Positions 27,820 through 29,610 of a stretch of 64,000 bases of DNA are shown in pieces. A model generated the notes under the pieces. It did no database searches. It worked only from the letters and a program-made list of their open reading frames with translations, and was not told where the DNA came from. How positions within the stretch are numbered: position 1 is the first letter of the stretch; each line of letters starts with the position of its first letter. The DNA comes from Escherichia phage UPWr_E2, in the sequence record PP418986.1; one strand, written 5' to 3'. A program made the translations under genes and the position numbers.

Positions 27820-28155
27820 ATGTCTGAAGTACAACAGCTACCAATTCGTGCTGTCGGTGAATATGTTATTTTAGTTTCTGAACCTGCACAAGCCGGTGAT
27901 GAAGAAGTTACAGAATCAGGACTTATTATCGGTAAACGTGTTCAAGGTGAAGTTCCTGAACTGTGTGTAGTTCACTCTGTCGGTCCTGATGTTCCTGAAG
28001 GTTTCTGTGAAGTTGGTGATTTGACTTCTCTTCCAGTTGGTCAAATTCGAAATGTTCCGCATCCTTTTGTAGCTCTGGGTCTTAAGCAGCCAAAAGAAAT
28101 TAAACAAAAATTCGTTACTTGTCACTATAAAGCTATTCCGTGTCTTTATAAGTGA
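27820..28155 (+). CDS. 31: co-chaperonin gp31 (GroES analogue for capsid folding)
   Basis: 111 aa; [29 protein letters not shown]... matches T4 gp31. Confidence 0.92.
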
Positions 28156-28163
28156 TATAAATA
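28156..28163 (+). promoter_or_regulatory. late promoter box TATAAATA
   Basis: exact tataaata immediately after gp31 stop, 140 nt upstream of rIII. Confidence 0.4.
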
Positions 28164-28302
28164 ATAATATGAATTGGGTGTCGGAATAATAAGTTAACCG
28201 AACAATTCTATGTGGTAGTCTACAACTGAGAGATCTGTCGAAAGAAGATGAAATTCAGAAGAACGTGACTACCGAGTTTTAATCTCTAACGAGAATTTTT
28301 AA

Positions 28303-28551
28303 ATGATTAAACAATTACAACACGCTCTTGAACTGCAACGAAACGCATGGAATAATGGTCACGAAAACTATGGCGCATCTATTGATGTTGAAGCCGAAGC
28401 TCTTGAAATCCTGCGTTATTTCAAACATCTGAATCCTGCTCAAACTGCATTAGCTGCTGAGCTTCAGGAAAAAGATGAACTTAAATATGCTAAGCCTCTG
28501 GCTTCTGCTGCACGAAAAGCAGTTCGTCACTTTGTGGTAACACTGAAGTAA
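28303..28551 (+). CDS. rIII: lysis inhibition accessory protein rIII
   Basis: 82 aa; MIKQLQHALELQRNAWNNGHENYG... Confidence 0.85.
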   Translation: MIKQLQHALELQRNAWNNGHENYGASIDVEAEALEILRYFKHLNPAQTALAAELQEKDELKYAKPLASAARKAVRHFVVTLK

Positions 28552-28949
28552 TTTATTGGAGAGTCACTGCCTTAGTGTGAAGTTAAAACGAGGAGCCGTC
28601 GAACTGTCTGATTAATGATTTGCGAATCATTATAGTTTTAAGACCCCGGCAGTTTTACGGTGTACCTCTTGAATGTTATTCTTATAGCGGCAAGTGCATG
28701 CTACCCCGAGGTGATGGCCAATCGGGAGTACGCCTCAAGGCCTATATATCCATCAGTATATATCTTATCCTCGAGAAATCGAACCCGGAACCTTTAAGCT
28801 AACGGTGTGCAACAGATAAGAGCTATAAGGTATGATGACGGGTTTATAGTTATCCTGGTCGTTAAATATCCAAAAACTTATGTTCCCCTTGAGGGCTTGC
28901 GCAGGCAATGCCAATAAGTCCTGCATTTTCATTTAAAAGAGAATTTATA

Positions 28950-29126
28950 ATGGCAAAACAAGCTAAAGCAAAGAAAGCAGTTGAAAAGAAAGTTGGTGAT
29001 TCTAAACGCGCTGGCTACAAGCGTGGGTCGAACTCTCGTATCAATCAAACTGTTGAGAAGATCATGCGCCGAGCACGTGCGGTTCTTCGAGATGATGCTT
29101 CTCGTTTTGGTAAGCAGAAAGCATAA
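28950..29126 (+). CDS. hypothetical small basic protein (58 aa)
   Basis: MAKQAKAKKAVEKK..., Lys/Arg-rich; followed by strong terminator. Confidence 0.5.
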   Translation: MAKQAKAKKAVEKKVGDSKRAGYKRGSNSRINQTVEKIMRRARAVLRDDASRFGKQKA

Positions 29127-29130
29127 GTTG

Positions 29131-29160
29131 AGGACTCCTTCGGGAGTCCTTTTTTATTTT
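29131..29160 (+). terminator. rho-independent terminator
   Basis: aggactcc-ttcg-ggagtcct then tttttatttt. Confidence 0.8.
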
Positions 29161-29179
29161 CCAAAGATTGCATAAAGTT

Positions 29180-29209
29180 GTTTACAGTATGGTTCCTTTG
29201 TGATAGTAT
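29180..29209 (+). promoter_or_regulatory. early promoter
   Basis: -35 gtttac, 18-nt spacer, -10 tagtat preceded by tga. Confidence 0.5.
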
Positions 29210-29236
29210 TATCTTACACAAACAAAGGAGAATAAA

Positions 29237-29560
29237 ATGAAAACGATTAATCTGAACGCTGCAGTTAAAACTAAATGCTTCAATGGTAAATATGATGAAA
29301 CTATGTGGTTCTTAATGGCAGTTGAAGGTGATATTATTGAAGTAGAAACAACAGAAGGTATGGGAACAGATTTCACCTTTACAATTCAAGTTCATAATTT
29401 CTTTACTGGTTGGATTTATGAATTGAATACAGTAATCGTTGGAAAAATTGAACAAAATGAATTAGGTGAATGGTATTATGTTACAGCTCGCCAACGTGCC
29501 GAACGCTTAATTGAGAAGATGAAAAAGTTGGTAAACTTGACATGCAGCATTGGAAAGTAG
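29237..29560 (+). CDS. hypothetical protein (107 aa)
   Basis: SD aaggag upstream. Confidence 0.55.
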   Translation: MKTINLNAAVKTKCFNGKYDETMWFLMAVEGDIIEVETTEGMGTDFTFTIQVHNFFTGWIYELNTVIVGKIEQNELGEWYYVTARQRAERLIEKMKKLVNLTCSIGK

Positions 29561-29570
29561 TAAAATAATT

Positions 29571-29610
29571 GTTTACTTTGGTACAGGATATGATATTATA
29601 TACCTGTACC
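29571..29610 (+). promoter_or_regulatory. early promoter with -10 inside a hairpin loop
   Basis: gtttac -35, 17-nt spacer, tattat -10; 8-bp stem ggtacagg/cctgtacc flanks the -10. Confidence 0.45.

Follow-up and report, generated by a model that had tools for sequence, protein, structure and literature searches.

A structured RNA of an apparently new family between rIII and gene 30.9 in Escherichia phage UPWr_E2 and other T4-like phages

The 64,000-nucleotide (nt) stretch of Escherichia phage UPWr_E2 analysed here (record PP418986.1, hereafter the window) is a segment of a Tequatrovirus (T4-like) genome, and the locus under study is 99.9% identical to that of Escherichia phage vB_EcoM_JB75. 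On the plus strand the genes follow each other in the order dCMP deaminase, 31.2, 31.1, gp31 (27820-28155), rIII, a gap, gp30.9 and gp30.8 (PF06019). The gap, at 28552-28949, extends over 398 nt without a credible gene from the end of rIII at 28551 to the ATG of gp30.9 at 28950, and T4 has a 244-base-pair (bp) unannotated gap at the same place. A preliminary description, made from the letters alone, had taken this gap for a GC-rich non-coding island and had offered three explanations: a structured small RNA, a long regulated 5' leader or the decayed remnant of an inserted element. Our analysis indicates that its central 150 bases are probably an unstudied functional RNA. Almost certainly, 28681-28829 on the plus strand encodes a self-contained structured RNA of about 150 nt belonging to an uncatalogued family (Table 1).

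The composition of the gap already sets this central part apart. The GC enrichment was confirmed, the gap reaching 41.7% GC against 36.2% for the window, a value equalled by 6.5% of 398-nt windows. The excess sits in the central 153 nt (46.4%, in the top 2.1% of 153-nt windows), while the outer parts have 40.5% and 37.0%. The claim that no open reading frame (ORF) above some 20 codons with a ribosome-binding site is present held in the sense that there is no credible gene and no conserved frame, but mechanical ORFs of 60, 45 and 36 codons on the plus strand and of 55 codons on the minus strand do exist. All three repeats that had been pointed out were recovered, the inverted repeat TAATGATT-TGCG-AATCATTA at 28613-28632, one base away from its first placement, the GCAGG...CCTGC stem at 28901-28905/28920-28924 and the two tatatatc repeats at 28743-28765. 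Among these only the tatatatc pair belongs to the structured RNA, where it forms both arms of the covariation-supported hairpin P3; the string quoted as GC-rich (ccccgagg...caaggcc) corresponds to helix P2.

Table 1. Features of the rIII-30.9 region of the window.
Feature	Position	Strand	Description and evidence
T4 late-promoter motif	28156-28163	+	TATAAATA, upstream of rIII; exact match
rIII coding sequence	28303-28551	+	lysis-inhibition accessory protein; phrog_1457, E 4.7e-44; same annotation in JB75 and T4
Module A	28552-28677	+	spacer shared with T4, T2 and JS98, not part of the structured RNA; alignments
Core structured RNA	28681-28829	+	outermost P1 pair C28681-G28829; covariance model R1, 184 bits
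P1, closing helix	28681-28688 with 28822-28829	+	5' strand CUUAUAGC, 3' strand GCUAUAAG; sequence free to vary
J1/2	28689-28699	+	GGCAAGUGCAU; all but one position invariant in alignments
P2 hairpin	28700-28733	+	5' strand 28700-28711, hexaloop L2 UGAUGG 28712-28717, 3' strand 28718-28733
P3 hairpin	28743-28762	+	UAUAUAU 28743-28749, hexaloop L3 CCAUCA 28750-28755, GUAUAUA 28756-28762
P4 domain	28763-28821	+	P4 = 28763-28769 with 28815-28821; encloses P5, P6 and the invariant stretch GCUAACGGUGUGCAACAGAU
Modules C-E	28831-28949	+	constant 5' leader of gene 30.9, found in every Tequatrovirus relative whether or not it has the RNA; alignments
Gene 30.9	28950-29126	+	58-residue basic protein, ATG at 28950; phrog_1427, E 2e-31; annotated 30.9 in T4 and T2
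Intrinsic terminator	29130-29151	+	closes the rIII-30.9 unit; terminator scan, terminator also in the JB75 annotation

In the fold that we hold to be almost certain, P1 closes a junction, P2, P3 and the P4 domain (with P5 and P6 inside) project from it, and loop L2 pairs with loop L3 over 6 bp. Each helix was examined for substitutions that preserve pairing. P1 showed double-sided changes in four of its five counted pairs (UA/AU/CG and AU/GC/UA), P2, which contains AA, A and C bulges, had compensatory changes in 6 of 12 pairs, and both P3 and P4 had them in 4 of 7. The P5 hairpin (28771-28774/28779-28782), capped by a GAAA, GUAA or UAAA loop, had compensatory changes in half of its four pairs, and P6 (28783-28787/28803-28808) had a single one, from A-U to U-A, in Erwinia phage Cronus. 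The hexaloops L2 and L3 were fully complementary in 30 out of 30 distinct sequences and came in four co-varying versions (UGAUGG/CCAUCA, CGAUGG/CCAUCG, CUAUGG/CCAUAG and CAAUGA/UCAUUG), a complementarity that indicates a 6-bp kissing interaction. Since this loop-loop helix is absent from the covariance model, its pairing cannot be a product of alignment to the model. About half of the positions, for the most part those of junctions and internal loops, are invariant in all members, with clusters in J1/2 (GGCAAGnGCAUG), J2/3 (GGCCUA) and the P4 domain (CCCGGA and GCUAACGGUGnGCAACAGAU). The GGC of J1/2 may also pair with GCC at 28740-28742, a 3-bp helix that is unproven because all its positions are invariant.

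The number of compensatory changes was well above that of the controls. A MAFFT alignment of 28 distinct sequences gave an RNAalifold structure of 44 nested pairs, which were 98.8% paired and showed changes on both sides in 17 cases, as compared with 6.1 ± 1.4 after column shuffles (none of 500 reached 17) and 2 to 5 when the 3' partner was slid by 1-3 columns. With an alignment of 30 distinct homologues fitted to covariance model R1, the 49 pairs that include the pseudoknot were 99.2% paired and 24 were compensatory, against 8.9 ± 1.7 in shuffles (none of 500 as high) and 4 to 6 in the slid controls. Several compensatory pairs were found in each of P1, P2, P3, P4, P5 and the kissing helix. 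The MAFFT result and the pseudoknot are independent of R1, a model that detects exactly one copy within the window. The strand could also be assigned: about 57 G·U cells of the alignment would become A·C mismatches on the minus strand, and since the G·U pairs fit one strand only, the RNA is that of the plus strand.

No conserved reading frame was found in the core, as all six frames contain at least one stop in all 30 homologues, at varying positions, and the sequences differ by indels of +1, -3 and +9 nt; a 46-codon frame is open in some Klebsiella-type sequences. Two GenBank coding sequences for hypothetical proteins lie over the RNA, JB75_0063A on the plus strand (28608-28802 in JB75 numbering) and BCGALACO_00106 on the minus strand (2578-2721 of locus L003, Klebsiella phage Phi_KR8), and both are probably spurious. 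The idea of a decayed gene or inserted element was not borne out: no homologue carries an intact ORF, there is no conserved frame and the substitutions track base-pairing, not codons. The comparison with homologues, which could have exposed either an intact ORF or a lack of conserved structure, thus came out in favour of an RNA. Conservation of the core also exceeded that of its neighbours, with 96% identity to a Klebsiella phage, 93% to a Karamvirus and 100% to JS98, where rIII, gp31 and 30.9 reach only 70-87% in the same comparisons.

The gap as a whole is a mosaic of modules, of which the outer two are common to T4 and the central one is not. Module A, which is absent in Killian and partly deleted in teqskov, holds a GGAG (28592-28595) and the 8-bp hairpin of the inverted repeat within a longer interrupted stem, and its single-sequence fold is of unremarkable stability (z-score -1.3). 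This GGAG is conserved in T4, T2 and JS98, in a small loop just 5' of the AU-rich hairpin 28613-28632, which is followed by UAGUUUU. GGAG is the motif cleaved by the T4 endoribonuclease RegB, and together with the hairpin it might constitute a processing or weak termination signal for rIII. Module B (28678-28830) is missing in T4, T2, teqskov and Killian, with a junction that is not the same in any two of them, and it is the sole part of the gap kept in the T4-like phages of Klebsiella and Enterobacter (91-96% identity), where it also lies between rIII and 30.9. In T2 an unrelated 44-nt filler, TACTATCATGCGTCAGAAAAGTGTTATCTGTGTAAGTCTTGGTG, stands exactly at the place of the RNA (about 525-570 of its locus, L040). 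Modules C-E comprise a stem enclosing CGUUAAAUAUCC (28831-28885), a hairpin CCC-UUGA-GGG followed by CUUGCG (28885-28902), the GCAGG...CCUGC hairpin (28901-28924) and an AAGAGA Shine-Dalgarno region near 28937-28942; their fold stability is again unremarkable (z-score +0.4). The CCC(U/C)UUGAGGG-CUUGCG hairpin and tail are conserved from Tequatrovirus to Klebsiella and Enterobacter phages, independently of the presence of the RNA, and read GCC-UUCG-AGGC in Cronus, a compensatory change. Two of the initial explanations each account for a part of the gap: there is strong support for a structured small RNA in the central ~150 nt but not in all 398 nt, and a long 5' leader fits only the 3' third. 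In Cronus the RNA comes right after the rIII stop codon, ahead of a module that is found upstream of the RNA in Klebsiella phages, and this difference in order implies that the modules shuffle.

We then considered how the core is distributed. BLAST located it at 408 places in 407 GenBank phage records, with one copy per genome, and the members include Tequatrovirus, Karamvirus and Roskildevirus. It is present in nearly all locus-matching Tevenvirinae of the Klebsiella and Enterobacter types, and its occurrence is patchy in Tequatrovirus, with 130 Escherichia-phage records containing the core versus 580 with matching flanks. T4, T2, teqskov and Killian present four different deletion or replacement states, the RNA having been lost independently in each. 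Two pattern scans that covered 185,579 genomes of bacteria and archaea returned no copy, and a search of E. coli genomes for host-RNA mimicry found no similarity; a metagenome scan gave T4-like contigs and one chance match, nothing else. At the stringency of the pattern scans, the RNA is not a host or prophage element. Four relaxed-pattern scans of viral contigs yielded 80 new loci, to which the covariance model was applied; one new member, that of Cronus, was added, the other hits being chance matches.

One member (140 bits) lies outside the T4-like phages, in PKM.Lu.22.1, a 76-kb Grimontviridae phage unrelated to T4. There the RNA has an unrelated ORF (phrog_6599) on one side and, 45 nt downstream, an intrinsic terminator, which is followed by a gene for an ECF-type sigma factor. 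The RNA is the sole nucleotide or protein similarity between the whole PKM.Lu.22.1 genome and the window. The flanks are 97.7% identical in Salmonella phage PKM.Hi.22.6, in which the site is empty, so that the cassette is delimited as about 150 nt, from P1 to P1, without target-site duplication. That the structured RNA is gained and lost as a unit, exactly at P1, is part of the structural claim that we consider almost certain. The PKM.Lu.22.1 copy differs from that of the window at about 15% of positions, and because pairs of P1, P2, P3 and P4 have changed in a compensatory manner, the RNA has kept its fold in the new setting. An own promoter in PKM.Lu.22.1 was sought, and the weak sigma-70-like site obtained (9/12) would start inside P1 and is not convincing. 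A motif of about 25 nt, GGTGATT(T/C)GCTACC..AGTGC(A/G)GCT, directly adjoins the RNA on its 5' side in Klebsiella T4-like phages (about 2455-2485 of L003) and on its 3' side in PKM.Lu.22.1 (1357-1385 of L124), and the empty site of PKM.Hi.22.6 (L130) already has it. It could be due to chance, a recombination substrate or a functional neighbour.

Known RNA families were searched extensively. Rfam 15 (4227 covariance models) gave no match on either strand of 28670-28840 at E values up to 10, and a scan of 28000-29300 placed nothing in the gap. The sub-threshold match to Atu_C8 at 29082-29165 (31 bits for a threshold of 50) is merely the 30.9 terminator. ARAGORN detected no tRNA or tmRNA gene in the whole window, and literature searches by sequence strings and by topic retrieved no description of the element in the papers searched. 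It appears to be a new RNA family. Likenesses noticed by eye to SAM-I (UCUUAUC...CCCGGnAACC...GAUAAGAG), to RNase P RNA (GUGCAACAGAgAG, CGAUGGCC) and to the hairpin ribozyme were rejected, since the motifs are ordered differently, the architecture is not the same and none of the Rfam models gives a score. The known self-cleaving classes (hammerhead, twister, twister-sister, pistol, hatchet, hairpin, HDV-like, glmS and VS) gave no Rfam match. A group I intron was discarded as well: that class needs an interrupted gene, a P3-P9 core of at least ~200 nt and a match to Intron_gpI, and the RNA is intergenic, 150 nt long and without Rfam match. The same applies to the promoter-early stem-loop (PeSL) cassette, which needs a T4 early promoter adjoining the stem-loop, as no promoter-like site occurs in 28552-28949.

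The RNA nevertheless recalls several described systems; the comparisons with ROOL and GOLLD, with put and EAR, with purine and lysine riboswitches and with PeSL rest on general knowledge of these systems. ROOL and GOLLD are likewise phage-carried, complex covarying folds without an obligatory protein partner, and their intermolecular kissing loops build RNA-only assemblies; by analogy, the fully complementary L2 and L3 could act between molecules. However, ROOL and GOLLD measure 400-800 nt and come for the most part from phages and prophages of Firmicutes and other bacteria, whereas the present RNA has about 150 nt, is confined to Enterobacterales phages and has no Rfam match to either. The T4 species 1 and 2 (rnaC and rnaD) are T-even phage RNAs of similar size (~120-140 nt) that are cut from a polycistronic transcript, but they are located in the tRNA cluster and present in T4, from which the new RNA is absent: model R1, run with filters off on T4 69500-74500, gave only noise (best 5.9 bits, E 0.69, not on rnaC or rnaD). 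Purine and lysine aptamers share the P1-closed junction, the neighbouring hairpins tied by kissing (over 6 bp in the lysine class), the invariant junction core and the 5' untranslated region (UTR) location; they differ in that the new RNA has no sequence or model similarity to them, no conserved platform and no informative gene, and was transferred without a platform. HK022 put and Bacillus EAR are structured operon RNAs upstream of terminators, EAR also lying between two operon genes, and they act on the transcript or polymerase that made them; there is no homology, put consists of two simple stem-loops, and relatives that lack the new RNA keep the same terminators. Finally, the gap is made of shuffling modules, as are the PeSLs, which Arbiol et al. 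(2010) reportedly presented as short non-coding cassettes shuffling between intergenic positions of T4-type phages. A PeSL combines an early promoter with a terminator-like hairpin in ~50-60 bp, while the new RNA lacks any promoter-like site and has a far more elaborate, covarying fold.

Promoter and terminator calls in this work are consensus matches only. The scan of 28552-28949 found no sigma-70-like site, and since the next terminator comes only after 30.9, the gap is predicted to be internal to an rIII-30.9 transcript and the structured RNA to be transcribed within the rIII-30.9 mRNA. The late-promoter motif at 28156 is likely to be one start of the RNA-containing transcript, a function deduced from the established T4 late-promoter consensus. 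The product of gene 30.9 had no Pfam or PDB match, and a search for a recognisable RNA-binding or ribosomal protein in it gave none; a T4 clone record that calls gp30.9 a 'glycogen branching enzyme' looks like an annotation artefact. Directly after the terminator hairpin (29130-29151) comes a promoter-like site of the T4 early type (TTTACA-17-TAGTAT), the two forming a PeSL-like unit at 29130-29209, a hairpin-then-early-promoter layout that is said to be the 'promoter-early stem-loop' arrangement of T4-type genomes. Two further promoter-like sites precede the next ORF (regions 29130-29209 and 29537-29599).

Several explanations of the locus were weighed. That there is no RNA gene at all, the place being occupied by a small protein gene, a decayed gene or homing endonuclease, or a DNA site (origin, recombination or protein-binding), could appeal to the two annotated hypothetical proteins and to the 46-codon frame open in part of the Klebsiella-type sequences. 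We regard it as very improbable in view of the stops in all six frames of every homologue, the +1, -3 and +9 indels, the lack of a longer intact ORF at this place in any homologue, the pair-preserving double substitutions, which extend even to two loops about 38 nt apart, and the G·U pairs on one strand, which nothing in a DNA site requires. A classical riboswitch, in which a metabolite or signal aptamer would control the downstream gene (30.9, or the sigma factor in PKM.Lu.22.1), has more in its favour. The covariation-supported domain resembles an aptamer by its multi-helix junction, loop-loop contact, invariant junction nucleotides and short AU-rich closing P1, the junction and loop-loop architecture being that of purine and lysine aptamers. 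It also occupies the 5' UTR of a same-strand gene in every context, and PKM.Lu.22.1 displays the order RNA, intrinsic terminator, ORF. Yet the expression platform is not conserved: the sequence after P1 is wholly different by genus (module C, hairpin D or module X), the start codon of 30.9 or of the sigma factor lies anywhere from 84 to 178 nt away, and the only alternative pairing of the P1 3' strand with downstream sequence is an AU-rich coincidence specific to the window and not seen in other genera. In addition, relatives without the RNA have an unchanged downstream leader (and PKM-type terminator), the aptamer alone crossed between phage families, and no Rfam riboswitch matched. The associated genes, unrelated and non-metabolic, suggest no consistent ligand, and an aptamer would be useless without its platform, so that a riboswitch seems unlikely.

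A generic cis-acting module, working on whatever transcript carries the RNA, is somewhat less doubtful, though still improbable; this grade covers all its forms together, namely a self-cleaving ribozyme or processing signal separating cistrons, a barrier to RNase E scanning and a put/EAR-like antiterminator. In every case two same-strand cistrons of one operon flank the RNA, with a terminator downstream in both contexts (45 nt away in PKM.Lu.22.1, after 30.9 in the window), and the transfer of a bare cassette without expression platform would be tolerable for a context-independent cis element. Small ribozymes are common in phage intergenic regions, and strongly conserved junction nucleotides are typical of them. 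On the other hand, no Rfam ribozyme or antitermination family appeared at E up to 10, and with 150 nt and six helices the RNA is larger than most self-cleavers. T4, T2 and others have the same terminator and downstream genes without the RNA, which is thus dispensable for read-through.

The explanation that we favour, while granting it somewhat less than an even chance, is an autonomous accessory RNA that would be independent of neighbouring genes and bind a host or phage factor or a small ligand. Independence from the neighbours is suggested by four features: the downstream leader (and the PKM-type terminator) is the same with or without the RNA; the sequence following P1 differs between genera; the downstream genes are unrelated, 30.9 or a sigma factor; and the RNA moved alone between phage families. 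Moreover, a patchy distribution with repeated losses and horizontal transfer, such as that of this RNA, is the one shown by accessory functions in host interaction. Such a non-coding RNA (ncRNA) would hitch-hike in the polycistronic transcript and possibly be excised from the mRNA afterwards. Its compact structure would be locked by the kissing loops, although dimers or oligomers may also form through the same L2 and L3, and the invariant junction surface would then bind its host or phage factor or small ligand, and the RNA might for example serve as decoy, sponge or modulator while Enterobacterales are being infected. As a more speculative and rather doubtful extension, the RNA might be the founder of a new functional class spreading between unrelated phages as a bare 150-nt cassette, either a new natural ribozyme or an RNA-only accessory factor, e.g. 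a self-assembling L2/L3 dimer or oligomer, or a sponge or decoy of aptamer type directed at a host molecule of defence or signalling.

A number of points weigh against the structured and autonomous RNA proposed here. The family is narrow, consisting of one phage subfamily and one transfer, and its sequence diversity is limited, so that recent spread, and not constraint, may be part of the reason why many positions are 'invariant'; the GGC/GCC helix and most of P6 are without covariation support. Like a cis-regulator, the RNA is in every case upstream of a gene on its own strand, and in T4-like phages it has neither promoter nor terminator of its own, for which reason a trans-acting RNA would need processing. 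A full 6-bp kissing between neighbouring hexaloops would be sterically demanding, and the contact could be either intra- or intermolecular.

A second conserved structured element of about 62 nt was noticed on the plus strand at 28213-28275, between gp31 and rIII. Its outer stem is GGUAGUC/GACUACC, its internal loop, CUACAAC / GAAGAACGUG, is invariant, and it has inner hairpins; all three stems co-vary among phages (GGGAGC/GCUCCC, GGUGGAC/GUCCACC and GGCGA/UCGCC), the inner stem being CUGA/UCAG or CCGA/UCGG and the inner hairpin of Cronus being different. The element precedes rIII in Tequatrovirus, T4 included, as well as in JS98 and VR26, but in Cronus and the phages of Klebsiella and Enterobacter its place is ahead of 30.9. 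In all cases a small hairpin with the Shine-Dalgarno sequence comes next. The element has no Rfam match and looks like a movable translational-control cassette.

The RNA between rIII and 30.9 bears the marks of a sophisticated functional RNA, with five covarying helices, a co-varying 6-bp loop-loop contact, about 50% invariant positions, concentrated in junctions, and a conservation above that of adjacent genes. In some 400 sequenced relatives it is unannotated or mis-annotated as a 'hypothetical protein', probably because T4, the reference of the group, lacks it. Genome annotations should carry an ncRNA feature in place of the spurious ORFs, and a new Rfam family could be started from the alignment and model. 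Nature also provides isogenic-like pairs with and without the RNA, the JB75-type versus T4-type phages and PKM.Lu.22.1 versus PKM.Hi.22.6. Its patchy spread, repeated loss and solitary transfer resemble those of accessory and counter-defence genes. An RNA in a counter-defence role, or a new class of ribozyme or riboswitch, would if true be notable for both phage and RNA biology.

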